From positions 9,618-73,617 of the IMG/VR virus record IMGVR_UViG_3300017747_005082: a stretch of DNA of 64,000 nt; one strand, given 5' to 3'. This DNA comes from a virus. Its lineage: Duplodnaviria > Heunggongvirae > Uroviricota > Caudoviricetes. Of the stretch, positions 36,786 through 53,152 are shown in pieces. Made by a program: the position numbers and the translations under genes. Below the pieces are notes generated by a model. That model worked only from the letters and a program-made list of their open reading frames with translations, was not told where the DNA came from and did not search any database. Position 1 is the stretch's first letter; each line of letters starts with the position of its first letter.

Positions 36786-38396
36786 TTAAATTACTATTGC
36801 TTCAATTTCATCAATTAACGCTTTATATCCTTTACAATTAGATTGAATTAAATCAAATATCTTATCTGACCAACCAGCAATTTGTAAAACATTTAATGAT
36901 TTATCAAATACTGAAGTTCCCTTTGTTTGTTTAATATCAACACATATAGTATTACATTGTGGATTTACTTGTTTGAATTTTTTAAATAATATTTGAAATG
37001 ATCCTAAACCAGCATTTGAAGTATTATCCCATCCTCCAATTCCTCCAGAACTAATAACCATATCTGAAAATATAACTAAATTATCAACTTTTGTGTTATT
37101 TTTAATAACATCGTTTAAGAAATAATATAATCCATTTTCTGTATTGGCTCCACATTCTTTTCCTTTTTCAAATGAACGTTTATTAAAATCTAATAAACCT
37201 AATTTTCTATCCATATTAATTGAAATTAATTCATTTCCAAATAATCCCATATAAACATCTCTTTGGGAATATGCTAACATAGAACCAAATAAATTCCCAA
37301 TCATAGCAGTTGTTGTTTTAGAAAAAGCGGATATTTTAGAACTACCTCCTGCATCTCCTCTTACGGAACCTGAATGATCTACTAATATGGCAGTATTACC
37401 TTCTAATGCTGGAATATTATCTACAGAATATTCTAATGCTTTTTCTAATGCTTTTAATACTTTTTCTATAAGTACTTTAGGTTTCATATCTGATTCAAAA
37501 GCTATTTTAGAAGATGAAGTAGTTGGGTTTATATCTTCTACTTCTTTATATGCTGATACAAATCTAAAAGGTAATAATTTAGATTTTAACACTTTATCTC
37601 TATTAGTTAATTGACTAATAGCGTCATCTACTTTATCAGGAGCTAATAGAATAATATTTCTTAAATTTCTTACCAAATTCATCATTGGCATTCCTTTTAC
37701 ATTATCTAATACAGTAGTAATAGCTTCTTCTTTAAGAGTTTCAACTTTAACTCCTGTAGATTTAGCAATTTGACCTGCTTTAGACATTTCTTTTTCAAGA
37801 ATTTTAGTATTATATAATCCATCTAAAGATTCTCCTTTTATTAAACGTTTATACGCTTCTTCATTAATTTGAGAAGGTACTGGATGTGTTAAATTAACTA
37901 AATCTACTAATGAAATTCCTTTTTTAGCCATTTTATACTTATCTATTAAATAAGGATCCATTGACTCTAATTTAGATTTAAATCCTCTCTTCATAGCACT
38001 TGCTATTTTTGTATTTCCTTTTGAGAAATAATAAGCTAGAATTTCTGACATATCATCAGGTCTAGAAGCAATTTTTCTATAAAATCTTGAAGCATATTCT
38101 TTTCCTGATAATCTTGGAGCTAATTCTCCCGAAAGTAAATGAGTTACTGATCTCATATTAGCATCATTTCTTAGATATAAAGCTAATTTTGCTACAAATT
38201 GTTCATCAACAACAGAAGCAGCTTTATTTATTCTATCAACTACTTCTTTTTCTTTTTCATAATATGAATTTGAAAGAAATGTAGTCAAACAAGTTGATAC
38301 TAATTCTTCTTTAGCGCTTAATTGATACGCTTTTTCTCCCATTTTATTTACTGTAGTTGGAACTACTGGTTCTTTTGTTTTGTTAAATTTCGACAT
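36786..38396 (-). CDS. rsr: Ro60/Rsr TROVE-domain RNA-binding protein with C-terminal vWA domain
   Basis: FVAKLALYLR....MRS, KYK......SLVDLVNLTHP, LLPFRF..AY, LVDHSGS MIDAS, VIFSD. Confidence 0.9.
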   Translation of the reverse strand: MSKFNKTKEPVVPTTVNKMGEKAYQLSAKEELVSTCLTTFLSNSYYEKEKEVVDRINKAASVVDEQFVAKLALYLRNDANMRSVTHLLSGELAPRLSGKEYASRFYRKIASRPDDMSEILAYYFSKGNTKIASAMKRGFKSKLESMDPYLIDKYKMAKKGISLVDLVNLTHPVPSQINEEAYKRLIKGESLDGLYNTKILEKEMSKAGQIAKSTGVKVETLKEEAITTVLDNVKGMPMMNLVRNLRNIILLAPDKVDDAISQLTNRDKVLKSKLLPFRFVSAYKEVEDINPTTSSSKIAFESDMKPKVLIEKVLKALEKALEYSVDNIPALEGNTAILVDHSGSVRGDAGGSSKISAFSKTTTAMIGNLFGSMLAYSQRDVYMGLFGNELISINMDRKLGLLDFNKRSFEKGKECGANTENGLYYFLNDVIKNNTKVDNLVIFSDMVISSGGIGGWDNTSNAGLGSFQILFKKFKQVNPQCNTICVDIKQTKGTSVFDKSLNVLQIAGWSDKIFDLIQSNCKGYKALIDEIEAIVI

Positions 38397-38961
38397 GACT
38401 TAAAATTTTAATATTTAATATTTGTTCTAAATATTCAAACATAGGTTTGAATTCTTCTCTATATAATTCTTTTTTAATAATAGGATATTCTTCTTGGTAT
38501 TTATTATACATGGTTGAATTAGTAAGTAAACCATAAGAAGTATTTGCAATTATATCACATAATTTAACAAATAATCCTAAACGACATTCTTTTAAACCCA
38601 TAATATATTCAATTCCATGTCTTTCTTTTCTATTTTTACCTTTTAATTCAGTACAAGAATAAATAACTTCTGCAACTTCTTTAGAAATATTAATTTTATT
38701 AGATCCATTTGGATAATGTTCTTCAAAATATATAGAATATTGAAGTATATCATTATATGTTATTCTGGCATCTTCAATCAAATCATGCCCCCAAGCTCCA
38801 TTTAATGCTATACATAAATCTTTTGGATTTAATATAAATTGAAATTTTTCTACTTGTTTTGCTACTAGATTTAAATGAAATGAATATGGTAAATTTTTAT
38901 CATATTTTTGATTACAATTAATATCATGTTGTTGTTTACAAAATTCTATAAATTTACTCAT
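38383..38961 (-). CDS. RelA/SpoT-type HD hydrolase (small alarmone hydrolase/Mesh1-like)
   Basis: QKY...PYSFHL..V, AWGHDLIED, VKLCDIIAN. Confidence 0.7.
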   Translation of the reverse strand: MSKFIEFCKQQHDINCNQKYDKNLPYSFHLNLVAKQVEKFQFILNPKDLCIALNGAWGHDLIEDARITYNDILQYSIYFEEHYPNGSNKINISKEVAEVIYSCTELKGKNRKERHGIEYIMGLKECRLGLFVKLCDIIANTSYGLLTNSTMYNKYQEEYPIIKKELYREEFKPMFEYLEQILNIKILSHVEI

Positions 38962-39415: not shown

Positions 39416-39550
39416 TAAGTAAGGGAAAGTTTAGAAAAGGTTGTTATAGTTTTTTGTGGGAGTTGAACCCACGACCTTAAATTCCAAATATTTACGCTCA
39501 ACCAACTGAGCTTAAAAAACGAAGTAACTTTTCTAGTTACCACTTACTTA
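39416..39550 (-). ncRNA. Y-RNA-like element enclosing a complete tRNA-like cloverleaf (TTG loop) at 39448-39520
   Basis: TAAGTAAG/CTTACTTA, TGGTAA, TAGAAAAG/CTTTTCTA, TACTTCG, then GTTTTTT/AAAAAAC acceptor with D, anticodon and T arms. Confidence 0.7.
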
Positions 39551-39564
39551 TATTTATCAATGAA

Positions 39565-39610
39565 CTTATTATATTGTGAATATATGAATTAAAAATTTAT
39601 AATCCAAATA
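39565..39610 (-). promoter_or_regulatory. Bacteroidota-type promoter driving the Y-like RNA cluster
   Basis: TTGGATT...TTCATATATTCACAATATA, matches the repeated promoter motif. Confidence 0.6.
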
Positions 39611-39652
39611 TATTTTAAGTAATTTTTATATTATTTATATAAAAATAATTTG

Positions 39653-39726
39653 TGGCCAAGAAAGGTAACGATCCTTCTATCTTCTGATTATGAGTCAGTT
39701 GCTTTTACCATCTAAGCTACATGGCC
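39653..39726 (-). tRNA. tRNA-Met/Ile2 (CAT)
   Basis: Cloverleaf, loop CTCATAA, atypical T-loop ATCGTTA. Confidence 0.75.
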
Positions 39727-39909
39727 AATTTTGTGGAGAATAGGTACTCACCCCACTATACTTTCCCATACCTAATAACTTAAGATACTAAAGCTTTAAA
39801 TTTTAATACACTTTATAGCCCTGTAGTTTTCGCTGTTCTCGAAACCGTATCTACTTAGGAGACTTCTGCTATAAAATTCACATAAAACTGATGTTAAGTA
39901 TTAAAAATA

Positions 39910-40176
39910 TTATTCTGTGTATTCTAAGATATATTTATCAATTAATGATTGAGATATTTCTTTTTTAACACATTTTTGTCTTTCTTTACCTTTCAAAACA
40001 GCGTAAGCTTCATATAAATGTCTTAATTTTTCTCTATTACTAAAAACATTATAAGTGGCTTGATCTGCTTCTACTGTTCTTATACCGGTAAAATGAATTG
40101 TTTTTCTTTGTGGTTTTAAAACTACTTGTTGATCAACTAATTGTTTAATATCTGTTCTAATTTTTGTATATTTCAT
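39910..40176 (-). CDS. hypothetical basic protein, translationally coupled (ATGA) to the Pth2-like gene
   Basis: Its ATG overlaps the TGA of 40173-40514. Confidence 0.65.
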   Translation of the reverse strand: MKYTKIRTDIKQLVDQQVVLKPQRKTIHFTGIRTVEADQATYNVFSNREKLRHLYEAYAVLKGKERQKCVKKEISQSLIDKYILEYTE

Positions 40177-40514
40177 GATAATGTTAATTTTAATTTTTTA
40201 AATAATTGTTTGTGTAATTCTGATGGAAGTGATTCAATAGCAATAGCTGTTAATTGATTACCTATATCAGGTTCTAAAAACACACTATATTTAATTTTAA
40301 GTTCATCTAATTTTGATCTTAAGATCTCAATTTTGAACTCTGATTCTTCCAAACAGCATAAATAATTACTTTTAAATTGCCATTCTTTAAATTCATGATA
40401 ATACTTTACAGCAAAATCAGCTAACGCATGAGCGGATTGTACTACCTTATAACCAGGTGTTAAATCCTTTCTTGTAACAATAGTGATAAAATCACCTTCT
40501 TTAATCTACTTCAT
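40173..40514 (-). CDS. peptidyl-tRNA hydrolase 2 (Pth2)-like protein with in-frame TAG at codon 3
   Basis: Hand translation MK*IKEGDFITIVTRKDLTPGYKVVQSAHALADF...FLEPDIGNQLTAIAI...; 114 codons, TAG at 40506-40508; absent from the ORF track. Confidence 0.8.
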
Positions 40515-40537
40515 AATAAAAATTATTTAATTAGTAG

Positions 40538-40611
40538 TGATTTTAATGGGACTCGAACCCATAACCTTCAGTTTTAGAGACTGCTGCTCTTACCAATTGA
40601 GCTATAAAACC
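40538..40611 (-). tRNA. amber suppressor tRNA (anticodon CTA)
   Basis: Cloverleaf GGTTTTA/TAAAATC, D-arm GCTC/GAGC, loop CTCTAAA, T-arm ATGGG-TTCGAGT-CCCAT. Confidence 0.9.
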
Positions 40612-40831
40612 AATTTTCATTACATGAGATTACTGTAACTAGATTTTAACTGTTTTTTTTCTTAAAAATTCAACAATTAGTGTCTTACCACATGAACTAA
40701 AATCAACCTTTCCGTGGAGGAGTAGGTAGTTCTCCTTTTATCCAATCGGCCCCTTCTGTAAAATCGTAGACGGAACAACTATAACTTTGTTAATGTAAGT
40801 TACAAAACATCAAGTATCTCTTACTTATTCG

Positions 40832-40901
40832 TAGCGGTCGCAGGAATCGAACCTGACCTTAGGGTTATGAGCCCTTCGTGCTACCCTTACACTACCCCGC
40901 G
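40832..40901 (-). tRNA. initiator-like tRNA-Met (CAT), atypical
   Basis: CGCGGGG start, GGG/CCC anticodon stem, mismatch at 1:72; shortened variable/T region. Confidence 0.7.
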
Positions 40902-41036
40902 ATATATTTTTATTATTAAACGGTGACAGCTCTTCATGTTTTTTGAACATTATGTCAATAATATGTAATATAAATCCGCTGTACCTAAAGAGTCTCGTAT
41001 CTCTCATTGATAGCCGCCTCCGTTTAATAATTTTTG

Positions 41037-41110
41037 CCGTCCTTATGGGACTCGAACCCATGATCTCCTACGTGACAGGCAGGCATCCACTCCAACTGGA
41101 CCGAAAGACG
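41037..41110 (-). tRNA. tRNA-Asp (GTC)
   Basis: Cloverleaf, loop CTGTCAC, G73. Confidence 0.9.
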
Positions 41111-41202
41111 AAGCTTGGTGTTTTATATTAGTTTCCATTTTTTTAATATAAAAAATCGACCACCGCCTCAAACACCATGAGGGATAAATGCTTTAAAAAT
41201 TG

Positions 41203-41275
41203 TGGATACGCAGGGATTCGAACCCTATCTTCCTAATTGCAAATCAGGAGCATTTGCCATTTATGCTAGCGACCC
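41203..41275 (-). tRNA. tRNA-Ala (TGC)
   Basis: Loop TTTGCAA, G3:U70, imperfect lower acceptor stem. Confidence 0.8.
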
Positions 41276-41279
41276 ATTG

Positions 41280-41352
41280 TAAGAGAGAATACTAAGAAGA
41301 GTTTATTGTTAAAATCCATTTATCGAAGTAACTCTATCTTTTACTACTCTTA
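41280..41352 (-). ncRNA. minimal Y-RNA-like element
   Basis: TAAGAG/CTCTTA stem, TAGTAA, GA(T)AGAGTT/AACTCTTC bulged helix, TACTTCG. Confidence 0.6.
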
Positions 41353-41353
41353 G

Positions 41354-41427
41354 TAACGCATATGGGATTCGAACCCACGATCTTATCATAGAAAGTGATA
41401 CGTGTTAGCCAACTACACTAATGCGTC
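41354..41427 (-). tRNA. tRNA-Glu (TTC)
   Basis: Cloverleaf, loop CTTTCTA. Confidence 0.85.
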
Positions 41428-41606
41428 ATTTTAAATAAGTTGTAGAGGCTTTTAGGGATAATTATAGGCAACTTTTCACCGTAAACTCGGCTTCCCAAAC
41501 TCATTTGCACTTATATCTTATCTTTTACGCGTGCAACTTATTATATTGTAAATATATGAACTTATATTTTATAAATCAAATATTTTTTAAAATATTTTTA
41601 TTTTTG

Positions 41607-41682
41607 AGCAGAATGTGGGATTCGAACCCACGATGATTCTACATTGGAAGTGTAGCGCAATCGGCCGCTATGCGAATTCTGC
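41607..41682 (-). tRNA. tRNA-Gly (TCC)
   Basis: Cloverleaf, loop CTTCCAA, U73. Confidence 0.9.
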
Positions 41683-41740
41683 AAATAGTAAGAAATAAAA
41701 TATAGAACCACGAGCACTGATGAATTCTATTCTTACTTTG

Positions 41741-41814
41741 TACTCTGAGAGGGGGTCGAACCCTCAAAAATCTTGTTCCTAAGACAAGCGCGTATGCCAT
41801 TCCGCCATCAGAGC
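41741..41814 (-). tRNA. tRNA-Leu (TAG), short variable region
   Basis: Cloverleaf, loop CTTAGGA, variable region only ATTTTT. Confidence 0.8.
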
Positions 41815-41822
41815 AGTTTTTG

Positions 41823-41907
41823 TACCGCTACCGGGAGTTGAACCCGGACGCCCATTCTGGACACAAGATTTTAAGTCTTGCATGACTACCAATTCCATCA
41901 TAGCGGC
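41823..41907 (-). tRNA. tRNA-Leu (TAA)
   Basis: Class II cloverleaf, loop CTTAAAA. Confidence 0.92.
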
Positions 41908-41945
41908 GTTTAAAGAAGAGTATGATGTTGATTCTCTCTTCTTTG

Positions 41946-42021
41946 AGGTAAGGATAGGATTTGAACCTACGAACATATGGGTTGCAACCATCTCCCTTAA
42001 ACCAAACTCGGGCACCTTACC
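41946..42021 (-). tRNA. tRNA-Cys (GCA)
   Basis: Cloverleaf, loop TTGCAAC, U73. Confidence 0.9.
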
Positions 42022-42029
42022 AAGTAAAT

Positions 42030-42098
42030 TAAATAGTATGGTTTTGAATTCATATCTCCTCGAAAATCAAGGGCTCTAATATTTGAGCTAACTATTTA
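42030..42098 (-). pseudogene. degenerate tRNA-like sequence
   Basis: TAAATAG/CTATTTA acceptor and GCTC/GAGC D-arm, but broken anticodon and T arms. Confidence 0.5.
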
Positions 42099-42234
42099 AT
42101 TATCATATTGTCCATAATTTGTTCTTGGACTTATTTCTTCAAAATCTCTAAAACTTGATTCATCTTCCATAATCCAATTATTTAAATTTCTATGTTATAA
42201 ATATATGAATTAAAATTTTATAATCCAAATTTTT

Positions 42235-42738
42235 TTAAAAAAGTAAATATTTTTCCCAACTTTTAGGTAAATTATCTATACCTTTTAACAACATAAGATA
42301 ATGTGGACGTTTTGGTTGAGGAATTTCTTTACCATATTCTGTTAAAGTTAAATCCGCTTTTTCACTATTACATTTTTTACATGCTGTAACTACATTTTCA
42401 AAAGTATTCTGACCACCTTTTGATGTTGGATGAACATGATCTAATGTTAAAGTTTTTTTATTATCACAACCACAATAAACACATTCAAAATTATCTCTTT
42501 TAAATACATTTTCTCTTGAAAATGGAACTTTTTGAAAAGGTTGATTTACATATTTAAAAACTCTAATAACTGATGGTTTTTTAATATCTAATTCAGGATT
42601 AACTAGTTTAAAGCTCTCGTCATGTTCCTGAATTACTTCAGCATTTCCTTTATAGGAAATAACAAAGGCTCTTTCTGTTGAGATAATACTTCTAGCTATA
42701 TAACTTGAATCTATTACTAGTGTTTTTCTATTATTCAT
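42235..42738 (-). CDS. HNH endonuclease (McrA-like)
   Basis: RDNFECVYCG...TLDHVHP..KGG...ENVVTACKKCN. Confidence 0.9.
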   Translation of the reverse strand: MNNRKTLVIDSSYIARSIISTERAFVISYKGNAEVIQEHDESFKLVNPELDIKKPSVIRVFKYVNQPFQKVPFSRENVFKRDNFECVYCGCDNKKTLTLDHVHPTSKGGQNTFENVVTACKKCNSEKADLTLTEYGKEIPQPKRPHYLMLLKGIDNLPKSWEKYLLF

Positions 42739-42920
42739 GACTTTATTTTATGTTGTGTTTTTCTATTATGTTTCCAAGAACGGTATTCTCTATATTTAAA
42801 ATATCCATGTCCTGCTTCACATCCTTCTTCACAATATGGAGGATATAGATCATTTAAAAACATTACTCTATATTCCTTATTGTTAATAGCTTTTTTATAT
42901 CTATCTCTATTTATACTCAT
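42735..42920 (-). CDS. small basic protein (RSWK..RKTQ motif)
   Basis: 61 aa; TGA overlaps the HNH ATG. Confidence 0.6.
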   Translation of the reverse strand: MSINRDRYKKAINNKEYRVMFLNDLYPPYCEEGCEAGHGYFKYREYRSWKHNRKTQHKIKS

Positions 42921-42932
42921 TTTTGCTCATTT

Positions 42933-42974
42933 TTAGGTTATTTAAACCTAATAAGCGTCAAATTTCTTTTTCAT
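42933..42974 (-). promoter_or_regulatory. TAG-terminated uORF (MKKKFDAY*) plus hairpin upstream of 42735-42920
   Basis: ATG 42972-74, TAG 42948-50, TAA 42942-44; TTAGGTT/AACCTAA stem. Confidence 0.55.
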
Positions 42975-43060
42975 AATTACTAATTTATATGTTTAAAACA
43001 ATCTTGATAGAATTCTGGTAAGTTTTTCTTTACCAAACTACTAAAAATGGGTGCGACTTG

Positions 43061-43131
43061 CACAGATGGTTGCAATCGAAGCAACTCGTTGAGATTTTGG
43101 AGATCTAATCGACACCAAGCCTGTCATCTGT
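43061..43131 (-). tRNA. tRNA-Trp (CCA), weak D-arm
   Basis: ACAGATG/CATCTGT acceptor, loop CTCCAAA, G73. Confidence 0.75.
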
Positions 43132-43138
43132 ATTTTTG

Positions 43139-43211
43139 AACCCCCATTCAGATTCGAACTGAAATAAAATATCTTAGAAGGATATGGCATTTCCATTTAT
43201 GCTACAGGGGC
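43139..43211 (-). tRNA. tRNA-Arg (TCT)
   Basis: Cloverleaf, loop CTTCTAA. Confidence 0.85.
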
Positions 43212-43490
43212 AAATTTACCTAGATTTCGTTCTAGGAAGACGTAAATAATAAATTCCTGGAACCTATTATTTAACAGCTTATTAAGCCGCTATTGCAAAG
43301 TTGTCCTTTACGTTTATATTAATCTCTATCTATTACTTAATCTAATGTCAAAGCCATTCCTCCCCTTATACAGTAGAGATAACTATAAGTTATCTCAACA
43401 CCCTAAAATACACATGGTATAAGGGCTTAGTGGAGAGGCTGGGTTTCGAACCCAGGTCCATTAAAATGTTAATAAACGTCAACAATTAAT
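43212..43490 (-). ncRNA. ssrA: circularly permuted (two-piece) tmRNA
   Basis: 3' piece GAC-CTGGG-TTCGAAA-CCCAG-CCTCTCC-A (to 43431) precedes 5' piece GGGGAGG-AATGGCTTT-GAC (from 43365); G3:U70; tag frame 43282-43311 VKDNFAIAA* TAA TAA; outer ends approximate. Confidence 0.88.
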
Positions 43491-43495
43491 ACTTG

Positions 43496-43570
43496 TGCAC
43501 CAACGAGGATTCGAACCCACGATATCTCTTAGTCCGTAGCTAAGTGTTTTTCCATTTAAACTATAAGTGC
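43496..43570 (-). tRNA. tRNA-Arg (ACG)
   Basis: Cloverleaf, loop CTACGGA. Confidence 0.85.
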
Positions 43571-43623
43571 TGGTGGGCATCCAAACCTAACTAAATAGGA
43601 AACCTGGCCATGTAGGTTTTTAG

Positions 43624-43712
43624 GGTGAAAGATGGGATTCGAACCCACATTAGAAAATTAATTCATTCCAGATCCACAATCTAGTCGGCATCCCTTACCG
43701 GTTACAATCACC
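43624..43712 (-). tRNA. tRNA-His (GTG) with 19-nt variable region
   Basis: G-1:C73, loop TTGTGGA. Confidence 0.8.
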
Positions 43713-43789
43713 ATATTAAAAATAAAGCTGACCTCCTAGTGGGCTTTAACCGTTAGCATTTAAGATACATTTACTCCACTTTATTTTAG

Positions 43790-43862
43790 TAGCGATGATA
43801 GGTTTTGAACCTACTACCTGAAGTTTATGAATCTTCCGCTCTACCAATTGAGCTACATCGCC
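43790..43862 (-). tRNA. tRNA-Met/Ile2 (CAT)
   Basis: Cloverleaf, loop TTCATAA. Confidence 0.85.
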
Positions 43863-43866
43863 AAAT

Positions 43867-43938
43867 AATCCCCTAATGGATTTCATACCATTATCTCCTG
43901 CTAGCTAGTCGGTTTATGAATATTAACTTAAAGGGATT
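43867..43938 (-). pseudogene. degenerate tRNA-like sequence
   Basis: AATCCC/GGGATT closing stem and AATGG-TATGAAAT-CCATT T-like arm; no proper anticodon arm. Confidence 0.4.
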
Positions 43939-43940
43939 TG

Positions 43941-44025
43941 AAGAGAGTATGAGATTCGAACTCATGCCGCGAATTAACGCGGACCGATTAGCAATCGGAT
44001 GCAATAACCACTCTGCCAACTCTCC
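43941..44025 (-). tRNA. tRNA-Ser (GCT)
   Basis: Class II cloverleaf, loop TTGCTAA. Confidence 0.9.
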
Positions 44026-44080
44026 ATAAATACCTCACCCTGAGCGCGCTGATCTTAAGGGAAGCGGGGTGAGTATGTTG

Positions 44081-44155
44081 TACTCATAGCTGGATTTGAA
44101 CCAGCGCGTAAAATCTTATCAGGATTTCTTTCTACCAGACTGAAAATATATGAGT
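44081..44155 (-). tRNA. tRNA-Ile (GAT)
   Basis: Cloverleaf, loop CTGATAA. Confidence 0.85.
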
Positions 44156-44233
44156 AAATAATTATAAGCTTAGGGACCACTTTTATGTTGCAACTAACCC
44201 TTGATTGAAAAGATGTGCTTCACTTATAATTTG

Positions 44234-44305
44234 CTCCTCCGGGGAATTTCGAAATCCCGACCATCGACTTAACAGGTCGCCGCTCTACCTCTGAGCTACG
44301 GAGAA
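44234..44305 (-). tRNA. tRNA-Asn (GTT)
   Basis: Cloverleaf, loop CTGTTAA, G73. Confidence 0.9.
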
Positions 44306-44346
44306 TTTTATTTTATTTTATTTTATTATTTCAATTTCGATTTTTG

Positions 44347-44420
44347 TGGAGATAGATGGATTTGAACCATCGTCCACCTCATCTTCAGTGAGGCACTCTA
44401 CCAGGCTGAGTTATATCTCC
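44347..44420 (-). tRNA. tRNA-Phe (GAA)
   Basis: Cloverleaf, loop CTGAAGA. Confidence 0.9.
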
Positions 44421-44480
44421 AATTTACTACTTTGATTTGGACACAGGACAAAGTAGAGAAAAAACCTCCCGTTTTGTTAA

Positions 44481-44714
44481 TTATTGGTGGTGTTTTATAT
44501 AACGACCAAATTTATCAATACGTAAATTCATACGTGTTAAAGATAAATTCCAAGAATTAAAATTAGACAATTTTGTTTTTTGTTGTGCCATTTTAAGAGC
44601 ACTAACTTCTGCTTTTGAACGATCCTTCTCTGTTGTTTCAACAAAGTAAGTGGGAGCTTGAGCACCAGTAATACTAGTAGGAACTACTCTCCAAATTCTA
44701 ATTTGTGTTTCCAT
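44481..44714 (-). CDS. hypothetical protein
   Basis: 77-aa ORF inside the tRNA array. Confidence 0.6.
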   Translation of the reverse strand: METQIRIWRVVPTSITGAQAPTYFVETTEKDRSKAEVSALKMAQQKTKLSNFNSWNLSLTRMNLRIDKFGRYIKHHQ

Positions 44715-44716
44715 AA

Positions 44717-44759
44717 TTTTAACGCTAAGTTAAAACTAGGAAGAATTTAGATTTGTCAT
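44717..44759 (-). promoter_or_regulatory. TAG-terminated uORF (MTNLNSS*) plus hairpin upstream of 44481-44714
   Basis: ATG 44757-59, TAG 44736-38, TAA 44730-32; TTTTAAC/GTTAAAA stem ends 2 nt before ATG. Confidence 0.6.
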
Positions 44760-44769
44760 AATTTTAATT

Positions 44770-45051
44770 TTATTTTCTTGAATATTTTTTAACATCTTCA
44801 AGGTCCCATCCTCTAAAAATGTTCATTCTATTATCTTTTTCTTTATCAACATAAATTCTAAAAATATAATCACAATAACTATATTGATCATAAATTGATT
44901 TAGGATTTGTAAAAGAAAAATCTTCATCCCAAAATTTAGAGCTTTTTATTTCATTATTCCAAGCTCTTCTAATTGTTCTCCAATATAAAGATGTTCTTTT
45001 GTAATTTCTTGGTTTGTCTTTAATTATTGGTTTTTTTCGACTTCTTGACAT
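44770..45051 (-). CDS. small basic protein (MSRSRKKP...DY...RK family)
   Basis: 93 aa, Arg/Lys/aromatic-rich. Confidence 0.6.
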   Translation of the reverse strand: MSRSRKKPIIKDKPRNYKRTSLYWRTIRRAWNNEIKSSKFWDEDFSFTNPKSIYDQYSYCDYIFRIYVDKEKDNRMNIFRGWDLEDVKKYSRK

Positions 45052-45057
45052 TTTTTT

Positions 45058-45096
45058 CTAGGTTTAAATTAATACCTAGAAGACTGAATATTTCAT
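45058..45096 (-). promoter_or_regulatory. TAG-terminated uORF (MKYSVF*) plus hairpin upstream of 44770-45051
   Basis: ATG 45094-96, TAG 45076-78, TAA 45064-66; CTAGGT/ACCTAG stem ends 6 nt before ATG. Confidence 0.6.
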
Positions 45097-45099
45097 AAT

Positions 45100-45747
45100 T
45101 TATTTTTTAATATTTCTTCCTTTATAAGTAGGTGTTTGGGAATGACAATTTGGGCATAATATTTTTAAATTTTCTAATAAATTATTTGAAGAATTACCAT
45201 CTATATGCTCTAAATCAAATGAAATTATTTTATTATTCCATTCTTTAATTCCACAATCTTCACATTGTTCTATTTTCAATCCTTCTCTATATAAATATCT
45301 TTTTAAACATCCAGTAAATGAATTATAATATTTATTTTCAATAAATTCTTCTCCTTTTAATAGTTTAGAAAAATCTCTAAATTTCCCTCTCCCAGATTTT
45401 TGTAATTTTTTATTTTTTATATAATTTAAATTATATTTATTGAATAATAATATTATATATGGTTTTGAAATTTTATAAATTTTATTTATCTTATAAATAG
45501 AATAGTTTAATTTTATTACTTCATCTAAAAATGTTTTTTCATCTTTAAATCCTAATTTTTTTAATATTTCCCAATAATCTATTGGTAATTTTTTTGGTTT
45601 AGATTTATTCCTTTTTTTGGTTTTGGGGTAATCTTTTAGATAATATCCTACAGTACCCTTTCCAATTTGTAAAATTTCACAAATTTGAGGTATAGTTTTT
45701 AATTCTTTCCTCAAATCCCAAATCATTTCTTTCCTTTCTAAATTCAT
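45100..45747 (-). CDS. HNH homing-endonuclease-like protein with N-terminal HTH
   Basis: CEDCG...DLEHIDGNSSNN.LENLKILCPNCHSQT. Confidence 0.85.
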   Translation of the reverse strand: MNLERKEMIWDLRKELKTIPQICEILQIGKGTVGYYLKDYPKTKKRNKSKPKKLPIDYWEILKKLGFKDEKTFLDEVIKLNYSIYKINKIYKISKPYIILLFNKYNLNYIKNKKLQKSGRGKFRDFSKLLKGEEFIENKYYNSFTGCLKRYLYREGLKIEQCEDCGIKEWNNKIISFDLEHIDGNSSNNLLENLKILCPNCHSQTPTYKGRNIKK

Positions 45748-45799
45748 ATTGTATATTTAATATAAATATACGAACATATTTATAATTAGCAAAGGTTTG

Positions 45800-45880
45800 T
45801 GGGAGGTAGTGGACTCGAACCACTCCCGTTAGGATTCGATTTACAGTCGAACTGCTATATCCAAATAACTTTTACCTCCC
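45800..45880 (-). tRNA. tRNA-Tyr (GTA)
   Basis: Class II cloverleaf, loop CTGTAAA. Confidence 0.85.
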
Positions 45881-45891
45881 AATTTATTTTG

Positions 45892-45962
45892 TACCTCGGG
45901 AAGGAATCGAACCTTCTCCATATCCGTGTAAAAGATAGACGCTACCATTACATCACCGAGGT
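45892..45962 (-). tRNA. tRNA-Val (TAC)
   Basis: Cloverleaf, loop TTTACAC. Confidence 0.85.
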
Positions 45963-46000
45963 ATAATTAGGTTTTTTATGGAAACCTGTAAAACCATTTG

Positions 46001-46073
46001 TACCCCCGGCAGGCCTCGAACCCACTACCCCTCCGTTAAAAGCGGAGTGCCCGTCCACATGAGCTTCGAAGGC
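46001..46073 (-). tRNA. tRNA-Lys (TTT)
   Basis: Cloverleaf, loop CTTTTAA. Confidence 0.9.
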
Positions 46074-46126
46074 AAATTTAATTCTATGATACCACAAGGT
46101 CTATGAATTAATAACAGTCTCCATCG

Positions 46127-46199
46127 TCTAAGTGAAAGGTCTCGAACCTTCGGCCTCGTAATCCCAAATCACGCGCTCTACCAACTGAGCTACACCTAG
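46127..46199 (-). tRNA. tRNA-Pro (TGG)
   Basis: Cloverleaf, loop TTTGGGA. Confidence 0.9.
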
Positions 46200-46207
46200 A
46201 AATATTG

Positions 46208-46278
46208 TTTCTCTGCAGGGACTCGAACCCCGACGATAAAATCCAAAATTTTAGATGCTACCATTACATCACAGAGAA
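46208..46278 (-). tRNA. tRNA-Gln (TTG)
   Basis: Cloverleaf, loop TTTTGGA. Confidence 0.85.
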
Positions 46279-46284
46279 ATATTG

Positions 46285-46373
46285 AGGAAGAAGTGGGACT
46301 CGAACCCACAACCCAGTTACTCACCGAATTACTACTTTTCAAGAGTAGCCCCTCATCCAGCCGGATTCCTTCC
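46285..46373 (-). tRNA. tRNA-Ser (TGA)
   Basis: Class II cloverleaf, loop CTTGAAA. Confidence 0.88.
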
Positions 46374-46473
46374 AAATTTTACCGATATGTCAAAGTACGA
46401 CTTATTTAATTTCTTATTTAGTAAATATATGAATTTAATTCTTATAAACCAAATATTTTTTAAATTCTTTTTG

Positions 46474-46545
46474 AGGTCAATAACAGATTCGAACTGTTGT
46501 CTCCTGGTTACAAAGCAGGAATTTTACCAATTAAACTAATAGACC
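46474..46545 (-). tRNA. tRNA-Thr (TGT)
   Basis: Cloverleaf, loop TTTGTAA. Confidence 0.88.
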
Positions 46546-49552: not shown

Positions 49553-49719
49553 TGATAATGACAGGATTCGAACCTGTAATTAGGATTTGCTTTTACCCGC
49601 TCTTGATTATCTGCTGACGGCCCACAACAAGTACATCCTATTAATTGTGGTGTTTTACTGTTATTCATTATCTAGCTCAAAGCTACTACAGTCAGCGTCT
49701 ACCATTCCGCCACATTACC
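49553..49719 (-). ncRNA. tRNA-like RNA with greatly expanded anticodon and variable regions (167 nt)
   Basis: GGTAATG/CATTATC acceptor, Leu-type D-arm, ACAGG-TTCGAAT-CCTGT T-arm; GCTGAC/GTCAGC stem encloses two sub-hairpins. Confidence 0.75.
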
Positions 49720-51021: not shown

Positions 51022-53152
51022 TTAATTTAATAAATCTTTTAAAGATTTTGTTTTGGAAAATTCTTTTAAATTTTCATATTTCTCCAGTTTATATTTAACA
51101 CCTGCATTATCCATCACTGTTTTCAAAATATTAGCAGTTGCAATTTGAGAATGATTTTTTTCTTTTGGAAATATAAGTCCTTTATCTCCTTCCTTCTCAT
51201 AAGTTAATATATTGGGTTTACTTGAAAATGATTTTATTAAATCTTCCATAGCTTGTCTTGTTTTGGGAGGAAAAGGCTCACCTCTTTCTTTTTCAAGTTT
51301 TTTCTTAATTACAGGAGTAGTAGGACCAAAATGATTTACAATAGCTTGTTCCACCTCCCTTTTATTACGAGTATTGATTAAATAATTCCCATAATTATCT
51401 CTATTTTCTAAAGCACTGATCAAATCTTCTACTGTATTTCCTGGTTTTGGAGTTAAAAAATAATCTAATTCTGAACGTGAATGTCCTCTATTAGAGCCAT
51501 CATCTTCAGTATTTTCTACAATTTTAAATTTCTGCATATATAGTTTTAGTATAAATATTTACTTTATACTATTTAATAAAATTTTCGTTAAATTCCTTGT
51601 TAAGTTTATTTATTGGAGCTAATTTTGCTTCTCTTTCTAATTTTTTCTTTTTTGCTTTTTCAATCTTTATATTATATAATGAATTATACATTTCTTCTAA
51701 ATTTTCGGTTCCATCAAAATCGTCACCTTTAGATTTTAACACATACATCGAATCAATAAAACAATAACGATATTGGGTAAATAAAGGAATAAAAGGTAAA
51801 AATAAAGCTAACCAACCATTATTCATAAAACTATATTTTAATTCCCATTTTTCTATCATCCATTCTTTTTCTAAATAATGAGTACCCTTAGATAATTTAT
51901 AAATTGGAGTTTTCTTTCCTTTATAAATTTTCTTTTTAGGAAATTTTAACCAAGATATACCATTAGGAAAAATACTATATAATAATAAATTTAAACCAGC
52001 ATTTATAATTATATAAACTAGTAAATACAATAAATAAAATCCCATCATTTTTTTATTTTTTCTAATTCATTAATTGCATAAATCAAATTATCTATAGATT
52101 GGGCTGCAATTCCTCCTACAAATATACCCTGCAAATCAGAGACTAATATTTTTGAATGATGTAATACCAAAGTTAATTTTTCTAATTGTTCTTTTGTATC
52201 AAGATTAATAGTATTATTCTCTAAAGATCCTGTTGTTGGGATCTCACTATTTTCATTTTTCTTTTTTGCCATTATTTATAAAATTTTATTGATTTTCCCA
52301 ATTTAATTAATTTTCCATCTTCATAATACTCAGAAGCATATCCTATAAAGTTAGGATTAATTTCTTCCGTTAACACTGCAGTTGATTCCATTCTTGAAAA
52401 TTCAACTAATTTTCCATTAATAAATACTTGTTTCATAATTTTCTTAGGTTTATTTTTCTTTTGTAATGCAAAACATATAGCAATAAATGCCATAATTAAC
52501 ATAATATCTTCCATATCACTTTTGTTTTAAATAATATTTATCTTCTCCTAACATAATATAGGCATCATTAGCTAATACGAAATATTTATATATTTCAGGG
52601 TTTAAATGTTTATAAGATAAAGAAACATACCCTTTTTCAAAATCTGAGAAATGGGTAGGATTGAAATCTTTTCTTTCTAATTCTAAGTGTATTTTAGCCA
52701 TAATTTATACTTATGTTTAAAATTTAAATATTTATCAGATTTATAACTTATACAATGTAAACAGATATTATGTATACTAAATCCTAACCAGGAAAGAATT
52801 AAAAACCATTTAAAACAGTATTTTGTTTCATCAAATTGTCTTGGAGATAAATCATTAATAAAACCTCCTATTCTACCATATGTTATTATAACACCTAGTA
52901 AATATATTCCTATTCCTATGTATATATTATTCATAATCATCTAATTGTATCTCCTTCGTTATATTTTTCTAAATCAAAATTCAATACTTCAACATTATAT
53001 ATTGAGTCTTTATTTTTCATAATAATATAAGAAGTAGTGCTATATTCACTTCTTACTTTAATAAAAACATCACCTTTATAACGTTCAATAGGATAAACAT
53101 CTCTTTTACCACAACTATATAATAGAAATAATAATAAACTAATATATTTCAT
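51022..53152 (-). other. run of hypothetical CDS, including membrane proteins (51569-52048, 52683-52940) and a lipoprotein-like ORF (52937-53152)
   Basis: ORF track; hydrophobic segments; LLYSC lipobox-like. Confidence 0.5.

Follow-up and report, generated by a model that had tools for sequence, protein, structure and literature searches.

A tRNA with the anticodon CUA, encoded by a phage that otherwise keeps the standard genetic code, is likely (at a probability of roughly 0.8) to be one half of a conserved two-part module, in which its selected job would be to decode the in-frame stop at codon 3 of the adjacent gene for a PTH2-like peptidyl-tRNA hydrolase. Comparison of related loci shows a stop codon, hereafter the gate, that would need decoding, that is conserved, and that tracks the anticodon of a co-oriented and usually adjacent tRNA. 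An earlier note on this DNA, made from the letters alone, had seen in the suppressor a regulatory or partial-readthrough device; the direction of this proposal stands, whereas its target has to be moved, since the conserved TAG is codon 3 of the PTH2-like gene and does not lie at gene ends.

The stretch of DNA that was analysed (64,000 nucleotides, hereafter the window) covers bases 9618-73617 of a virus record that is 180,524 bp long and has direct terminal repeats; the phage genome is complete (CheckV 100%) and has a GC content of 26%. The minus strand of this genome carries 292 of the 294 ORFs and every tRNA. Judged by the 1820-aa protein, the nearest cultured relative is Flavobacterium phage vB_FspM_immuto (35% identity over 43% of the protein). 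Coordinates of the locus and its surroundings are collected in Table 1.

Table 1. Features at and around the suppressor tRNA, in window positions
Feature	Positions	Strand	Basis or remark
tRNA, anticodon CUA (amber suppressor type)	40538..40611	(-)	Rfam RF00005, ARAGORN, direct sequence reading
Anticodon CTA within loop CTCTAAA	40575..40577	(-)	Plus strand reads tag; ARAGORN anticodon position 35
AT-rich spacer, 23 nt, from tRNA 3' end to ATG of gated gene	40515..40537	(-)	
Start and gate: ATG (40514-40512), AAG (40511-40509), TAG (40508-40506), then ATT	40506..40514	(-)	
Gene for PTH2-like (predicted) peptidyl-tRNA hydrolase, 113 codons, TAG as codon 3	40173..40514	(-)	PF01981, AF2 model, open-frame scan
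88-aa ORF, family unassigned	39910..40176	(-)	ATG overlaps TGA of the PTH2-like gene (ATGA)
tRNA array, 26 tRNAs	39448..46545	(-)	25 by ARAGORN, one by Rfam only
CAT tRNA of the array	40833..40900	(-)	Rfam only
Permuted (two-piece) tmRNA	43282..43477	(-)	Rfam 60 bits, gathering score 47
HNH endonuclease gene	42235..42738	(-)	
HNH endonuclease gene	45100..45747	(-)	
HD metal-dependent phosphohydrolase gene	38383..38961	(-)	phrog_990
TROVE/Ro60-like RNA-binding protein gene	36786..38396	(-)	PF05731; phrog_850
tRNA match, 167 nt	49553..49719	(-)	Rfam 33.8 bits; ARAGORN with introns: tRNA-Leu(cag), 74-nt insert

The canonical cloverleaf, the loop CTCTAAA, the arm GCAGT/ACTGA and A73, all of which had been read from the letters, are confirmed by independent means. 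Rfam gives a full-length match to RF00005 (70.7 bits, E 2e-13, model positions 1-71, gathering score 29), which ranks second among the tRNAs of the window, and the ARAGORN call (75 nt, anticodon cta) spans 40537-40611(-). Direct reading gives an acceptor stem with G1-C72 and G2-U71 followed by A-U pairs, a GG in the D-loop, a T-arm ATGGG / TTCGAGT / CCCAT, and an anticodon arm GCAGT / CTCTAAA / ACTGA with one mismatch, G27-A43. The loop C32 U33 C34 U35 A36 A37 A38 has the seven nucleotides, U33 and purine at position 37 of an amber suppressor, and the discriminator A73 is followed by CTA, i.e., CCA is not encoded. Pyrrolysine tRNAs have an atypical architecture, which lacks both G18-G19 and the canonical T-loop. 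The label tRNA-Pyl, which ARAGORN prints for every cta anticodon, was therefore rejected for a tRNA with a canonical GG-bearing D-loop and the T-loop GTTCGAG.

The tRNA had further been likened to tRNA-Trp and to the E. coli suppressor Su7, which inserts Gln or Trp. This likeness is real in the anticodon arm, which is that of phage tRNA-Trp genes, and the core of the CUA tRNA is closest to such genes (83-84%, BLASTN against phage records), further matches being genes of Aeromonas and Sinorhizobium phages with labels such as tRNA-Pyl or tRNA-TERM. It does not extend to the acceptor end, where G1-C72 and A73 stand against A1-U72 with G73, or G73, in the tRNA-Trp genes of related phages. Su7, a tRNA-Trp with anticodon CUA, shares the Trp-type anticodon arm with a change of C35 to U, but keeps the Trp acceptor end with G73, whereas A73 and G1-C72 are not bacterial identity elements for Trp or Gln and the relatives of the phage tRNA vary; the analogy thus fails for identity, and the Gln/Trp identity is not transferable. 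A Trp-derived suppressor of the Su7 type was accordingly rejected on the lack of G73.

The identical 17-nt anticodon arm occurs in the CUA tRNAs of four other viral contigs, and G1-C72 with A73 is common to four of these five tRNAs (that of the window and three others). All four contigs appear to be standard-code, and three of them also encode tRNA-Trp(CCA); Trp(CCA) tRNAs with G73 are present in one of the contigs and in relatives of two of them. Among 36 distinct suppressor tRNAs of this kind, the acceptor stem is not constant, nor is the discriminator (most often A, but also G or U). The resemblance to tRNA-Trp is therefore limited to the anticodon arm, and the sequence gives no amino-acid identity. 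Assignment by the nearest tRNA paralogue was rejected as well, as it yielded no consistent class. An exact-pattern search found no near-identical tRNA among viral contigs. Among public sequencing runs, the locus is present only in the probable source sample; none of the public RNA sequencing runs contains it, and the runs listed share 4-7% of words, which probably are conserved tRNA words.

Past the gate, the neighbouring gene continues for 110 codons without a stop and without an ATG, the first GTG or TTG being codon 51, and no other usable start is apparent in the frame. In a scan of the 180-kb genome, it is the sole frame of at least 70 codons that opens with a TAG, has an ATG shortly before it and lacks any ATG inside. 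Its product matches the Pfam family PF01981 (PTH2) with 26.1 bits (cut-off 23) over profile positions 4-114 of 115, and a search of the family profile against the PDB returns 24bt, “peptidyl-tRNA hydrolase” (E 1.2e-4). An AF2 model built on a 38-sequence alignment has a pLDDT of 94.6 and a TM score of 0.72-0.79 to the Pth2 structures 1xty, 1q7s and 3erj; the best 13 Foldseek matches in the PDB are archaeal Pth2 or homologues and human Bit1. An invariant Asp and an invariant Thr (EPD...T) fall on the DAG...T motif of a solved Pth2 in the alignment; at the Lys of the G-K motif, members of the PTH2-like family have either K or Q. By profile and model, the product is a PTH2-like protein with a predicted Pth2 fold, and hydrolase activity is predicted. 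At least 15 related loci likewise have the 88-aa ORF after the PTH2-like gene; searches of Pfam and PHROG assigned it to no family, its Atlas model is poor, and no usable Atlas match was obtained.

The phage as a whole is not TAG-recoded (code 15), as one gene only carries a required in-frame TAG. Over the whole genome, code 11 gives a coding density of 0.871, which rises to 0.881 if TAG is read as sense and to 0.875 if TGA is, and the 294 greedy ORFs end in TAA (224), TGA (45) or TAG (25), so that TAG is the rarest stop. The 1820-aa ORF and other long genes are open under code 11. The complete genome contains no RF-1 domain and none of the synthetase domains tRNA-synt_1c, tRNA-synt_1b and tRNA-synt_2 (classes Ic, Ib and IIb). 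The view of the earlier note that the suppressor is not a code switch is thus borne out by the density comparison that it had asked for, and by a genome without widespread in-frame TAG and without a release factor. The TAG-ended ORFs that it had pointed out (53139, 54728, 63144 and 63681) are real as well, two of them ending in YEIY-TAG. However, nothing is conserved beyond the stop at TAG gene ends, and reading through the stop adds a median of 5 codons for TAG, 6 for TAA and 3 for TGA, i.e., the length of extension at TAG ends is no different from that at the other two.

Outside the tRNA array, two gene pairs are in frame across a TAG, and both candidates for in-frame fusion were rejected as separate genes, the second gene having its own ATG just after the TAG in each case. 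The scan that found them required at least 40 codons on each side of the TAG and therefore missed the gate of the PTH2-like gene, where the N-terminal piece is two codons long. These same-frame adjacent pairs lie outside the window (genome 90439-90954 and 97070-97831), and in each the two genes are parted by one TAG and a short spacer. One pair consists of tandem paralogues; for both pairs, a fused product is possible when the suppressor is present. Seven of the 27 TAG-terminated ORFs are small genes with the tails Y-E-I-Y, Y-D-I-Y or Y-S-I-Y, sited at window positions 53139 and 54728 and at genome positions 92038-96221. The string GAAATATATTAG is common to four of these small genes and runs on into T[TC]ATGG, where the ATG of the next gene lies; their C-terminal tail would be masked by read-through.

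A protein search with the PTH2-like product returned 134 homologues, many of which start with M-K-Q-I. The apparently conserved Gln at the gate is an artefact: the DNA behind two homologues gives the database protein only if TAG is translated as Q, as in code 15 gene calling. The Q therefore carries no evidence on the inserted residue, and switching to code 15 on short contigs can hide a gate by printing Q. For the comparison at the DNA level, 41 viral loci, the 80 best among 408 metagenomic relatives and several further loci were combined into a set of 114 unique ones. In 107 of them, an ATG is followed by 0-13 further codons (mostly 1-3), a stop, and the domain, with the stop at a constant distance from a conserved Q-S-A-H-A motif. 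Of these gates, 104 are TAG and 3 are TAA, yet TAA is the usual stop of these genomes. The PTH2 proteins of related loci are 31-94% identical to that of the window, at a GC content of 23-52%, and ATG, GTG and TTG are all absent from the 12 codons past the gate in 81 of 104 gated loci. A purine follows the gate throughout (A in 80, G in 27 of the 107 loci), compared to 13 of 25 ordinary TAG stops in this phage (p = 1.5e-10). As Ile or Val follows the gate in 97 of the 107 loci, this context may be a constraint on the protein rather than a context for decoding.

Suppressor tRNAs in the flanks are all on the strand of the gene (87/87), and those located upstream end less than 100 nt from the gate in 22 of 34 cases. 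Ungated PTH2 relatives near a CUA tRNA are few (L075 and G005). The stop codon of the gate goes together with the anticodon: a TAG gate is accompanied by a CUA tRNA in 73 loci and by a UUA tRNA, which can read UAG by wobble, in two; a further 29 loci with a TAG gate have no suppressor in the available sequence, the flanks often being short. The three TAA gates (L045, L076 and L127) each come with a UUA tRNA (55.9, 68.9 and 63.6 bits in Rfam), and the combination of a TAA gate with a CUA tRNA does not occur. The association is significant (Fisher's exact test, p = 1.3e-4), with few non-TAG cases behind it (3 TAA, 1 TGA). In L045, the tRNA is a close homologue of the CUA tRNA of the sister locus L040, from which it differs at position 34.

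The TGA case is the Agrobacterium phage Atu_ph07, whose authors reported one suppressor only, with anticodon UCA, as well as two Pth genes, and did not connect the tRNA with the genes (PMC6102473). From the UCA tRNA, which was confirmed from the sequence, a TGA gate was predicted beforehand, and one of the PTH2 genes of this phage is indeed headed in frame by ATG ATT GGC GAA CAC TTT TGA ATT; start codons are absent between the TGA and the PTH2 domain, and the annotated start truncates the domain. The orthologue of Sinorhizobium phage Phosso, 72% identical to that of Atu_ph07, has a Shine-Dalgarno-like GGAG and then ATG AAG TAT TAG GTT, in a genome with CUA-type tRNA matches, one of them annotated as tRNA-Pyl. 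All three stop codons thus occur as gates, each with the matching anticodon. In phages with a UUA suppressor, TAA still ends 66% and 74% of ORFs, respectively, and the suppressor cannot therefore be an efficient general read-through agent; the pattern fits a weak decoding event that is favoured by the context of the gate.

The association also holds when the search starts from the tRNA. Four contigs were found solely by the tRNA pattern, and in three of them a PTH2-like gene lies within about 1 kb of the tRNA. Two are clearly gated (M-K-TAG-I in G006, M-S-K-TAG-M in G007), while G005, with a PTH2 fusion protein near the CUA tRNA, lacks a clear gate and was rejected; the fourth is a fragment of 34% completeness. 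Among cultured phages, Tenacibaculum phage pT24 has an annotated tRNA-Sup and, about 2.5 kb downstream, M-K-TAG-I-T-K-N before a PTH2 domain. In Stenotrophomonas phage RAS14, M-K-TAG-T precedes a longer protein that ends in PTH2, with no ATG before the conserved N-terminus, and in the Xanthomonas phages XacN1 and Xoo-sp13, M-K(-K)-TAG is found four or five codons before the annotated ATG.

The annotated starts of four PTH2-type proteins lie inside or well past the conserved N-terminus, namely those of pT24 (BPT24_235, LC168164.1), RAS14 (WAX21615.1, OP752703.1), Atu_ph07 (AUZ95035.1, MF403008.1) and Phosso (XYS97424.1, PV764938.1). Evidently, the annotators stopped at the in-frame stop codon, and if the proposed decoding is true, the truncated or missed PTH2 annotations in these records can be corrected.

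The array in which the tRNA lies comprises 26 tRNAs that serve 19 amino acids in addition to the suppressor. A tRNA-Trp(CCA), which is present in related phages, was not found anywhere in the complete genome. Within the array is a permuted tmRNA, and just downstream of it lie the genes for a Ro60-like RNA-binding protein and an HD phosphohydrolase, the latter with weak similarity (E 0.002) to the N-terminal domain that is fused to PTH2 in ORF364 of XacN1. The two-piece tmRNA, the HD phosphohydrolase and the Ro60-like protein point to translation-stress handling. A further tRNA match at some distance from the array could be intron-bearing or degenerate. HNH endonuclease genes are found amid the array, and HNH or LAGLIDADG genes also occur in related arrays, which suggests that they are mobile insertions.

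How the module might work can be outlined as follows. The tRNA array and the PTH2-like gene would be co-transcribed from the minus strand, as is suggested by the 23-nt spacing and the shared strand. The tRNA would then be cut out, supplied with CCA and charged, all by host enzymes, charging being assumed. Ribosomes would initiate at the ATG at 40514, read AAG and reach UAG followed by A, where release factor 1 would terminate most attempts after a dipeptide, and the charged suppressor would pass a fraction into the 110-residue hydrolase domain. Hydrolase output would thereby need both the mRNA and a working suppressor tRNA, i.e., the arrangement would act as a coherent feed-forward AND gate. 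Elsewhere, TAG would stay a stop, and read-through at the approximately 25 gene ends might be tolerated as a side effect, given that the next stop lies a median of 5 codons further on.

What such an arrangement would be good for can be addressed more tentatively. It is possible, at rather less than even odds, that the dose of hydrolase is tied to the balance between suppressor and release factor, and hence to the load of aberrant peptidyl-tRNA. Somewhat more doubtful is the idea of a sensor, in which competition of release factor and suppressor at a leaky early stop would set the hydrolase dose by how termination and peptidyl-tRNA stress stand in the infected cell, or, alternatively, of a hydrolase that serves as a dose-matched antidote to the disturbance of host termination by the suppressor. 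If the sensor or antidote reading were true, the module would be a natural, tRNA-built counterpart of prfB autoregulation and would provide a general reason for suppressor tRNAs in standard-code phages.

Several other explanations of the tRNA have to be weighed against its role at the gate. As an agent of general partial read-through, it would extend or modulate the roughly 25 TAG-ended proteins of the phage, or proteins of the host, and the TAG of the PTH2-like gene would be incidental. About 8.5% of ORFs do end in TAG, several of them being the YEIY-tailed small genes, and a TAG separates the members of two in-frame pairs of adjacent genes; however, the extensions past TAG resemble those past TAA or TGA, in both pairs the second gene has an ATG of its own behind the TAG, one pair being tandem paralogues, and the authors of the XacN1 study found nothing past amber stops (PMC5852040). 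General read-through is improbable also because it leaves unexplained why 107 loci have a stop in the same gene at the same position, why codon and anticodon covary, and why phages with a UUA suppressor still use TAA for most ORF ends. Even less probable is a way-station to TAG recoding as in the model of Borges et al., in which the suppressor comes first and the first in-frame TAG arose by chance in a neighbouring gene. Suppressor tRNAs have already been described in standard-code relatives of recoded phages (10.1101/2021.08.26.457843), GC is low (26%), TAG is the rarest stop here, and the TAG-recoded Lak phages also have PTH2 relatives, all of which would suit this model. Chance, however, would strike different genes, whereas loci spread over 31-94% identity and 23-52% GC have the stop in the same gene, at the same place near the N-terminus, and no other gene of the complete genome has an in-frame TAG. 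Moreover, genomes in which two thirds of the genes end in TAA have TAA gates with UUA tRNAs, and such gates cannot lie on the way to a reassignment.

The codons ATT, ATA and ATC can act as weak bacterial start codons. As one of these is found next to the gate in 71 of 107 loci, ATG-x-TAG could be conceived as a leader mini-ORF with re-initiation at the following ATT, ATA or GTN, which would not need the suppressor and would leave the tRNA to do something else. In the other 36 loci, however, the next codon is GTA, GTT, ACA, ACT, AGT, AAG, AAC or GCC, none of which is a known start, and a leader of this sort could end in any of the three stops; nevertheless, 104 of 107 loci have TAG although their genomes are rich in TAA, and the gate codon agrees with the anticodon of the suppressor encoded alongside. 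We give this explanation a slimmer chance still. The slightest chance of all falls to a tRNA that does not decode, be it a decoy or spare against tRNA-cleaving defences of the host or a degenerate copy of the missing tRNA-Trp: an array of 26 tRNAs for 19 amino acids without tRNA-Trp(CCA) and a Trp-like anticodon arm would agree with it, but related phages have Trp(CCA) and CUA tRNAs together, the CUA tRNA is among the best-scoring tRNAs of the window, and its anticodon tracks the gate codon.

Decoding of the gate, the preferred reading, would make the module a case of phage stop-codon recoding that is confined to one gene and workable with any of the three stops. It would thereby resemble the code 15 phages (crAss-like phages and Lak, with TAG reassigned to Gln), in which a phage tRNA(CUA) likewise decodes in-frame TAG in a standard-code host (Borges et al., 10.1101/2021.08.26.457843; Peters et al., PMC9523058). 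These phages are also of low GC and poor in TAG, and the idea that suppressor-dependent translation times expression is shared. However, in code 15 phages a block of late genes carries in-frame TAG, whereas here it is one gene with the stop 1-14 codons past its start; TAG remains a stop elsewhere, and the design is also found with TAA/UUA and TGA/UCA. Some members of the code 15 phages have an accessory RF2 and a synthetase, while RF-1 and the synthetase families searched are absent here.

The gene prfB, which encodes release factor 2, is autoregulated through an early in-frame UGA. There as here, an early in-frame stop lies in the gene of a translation factor and output depends on termination versus alternative decoding, but the escape in prfB is by +1 frameshifting and the sensor is the gene's own product, whereas the escape proposed here is by a dedicated tRNA. 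A comparison can also be drawn with minigenes, as dropped peptidyl-tRNA, on which peptidyl-tRNA hydrolase acts, classically stems from ORFs of two or three codons and a stop. The bar minigenes of phage lambda are toxic to Pth-deficient hosts, whereas here it is the hydrolase gene that begins with a leader resembling a minigene; that the two are functionally linked is a matter of speculation.

Suppressor tRNAs without a nameable target have been described in the standard-code jumbo phages XacN1 (PMC5852040), Atu_ph07 (PMC6102473) and phiKp24 (PMC8386662), and in XacN1, with two CUA tRNAs, the targets were not identifiable by the authors (PMC5852040). These studies looked past gene ends, whereas the gates of XacN1, RAS14, Xoo-sp13, Atu_ph07 and Phosso lie upstream of the annotated PTH2 or HD-PTH2 starts. 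PTH2 genes in jumbo phages have likewise been described already (PMC7824862). In full-text searches of a literature with few subscription journals, no work was found that links a suppressor tRNA to PTH2 or describes a start-proximal gate. A conserved target in a single gene, in which each of the three stops goes with its own anticodon, would give the suppressor tRNAs of standard-code phages a concrete function. A counterpart in layout is an engineered feed-forward loop, in which a suppressor tRNA and an amber-bearing target are co-expressed, the protein needs both, and leaky expression is abolished (PMC7969014). While that loop is synthetic, the phage module, for which the same layout is proposed, occurs in nature, is conserved and goes with a single enzyme family, and would offer a natural, compact AND gate to synthetic biology.
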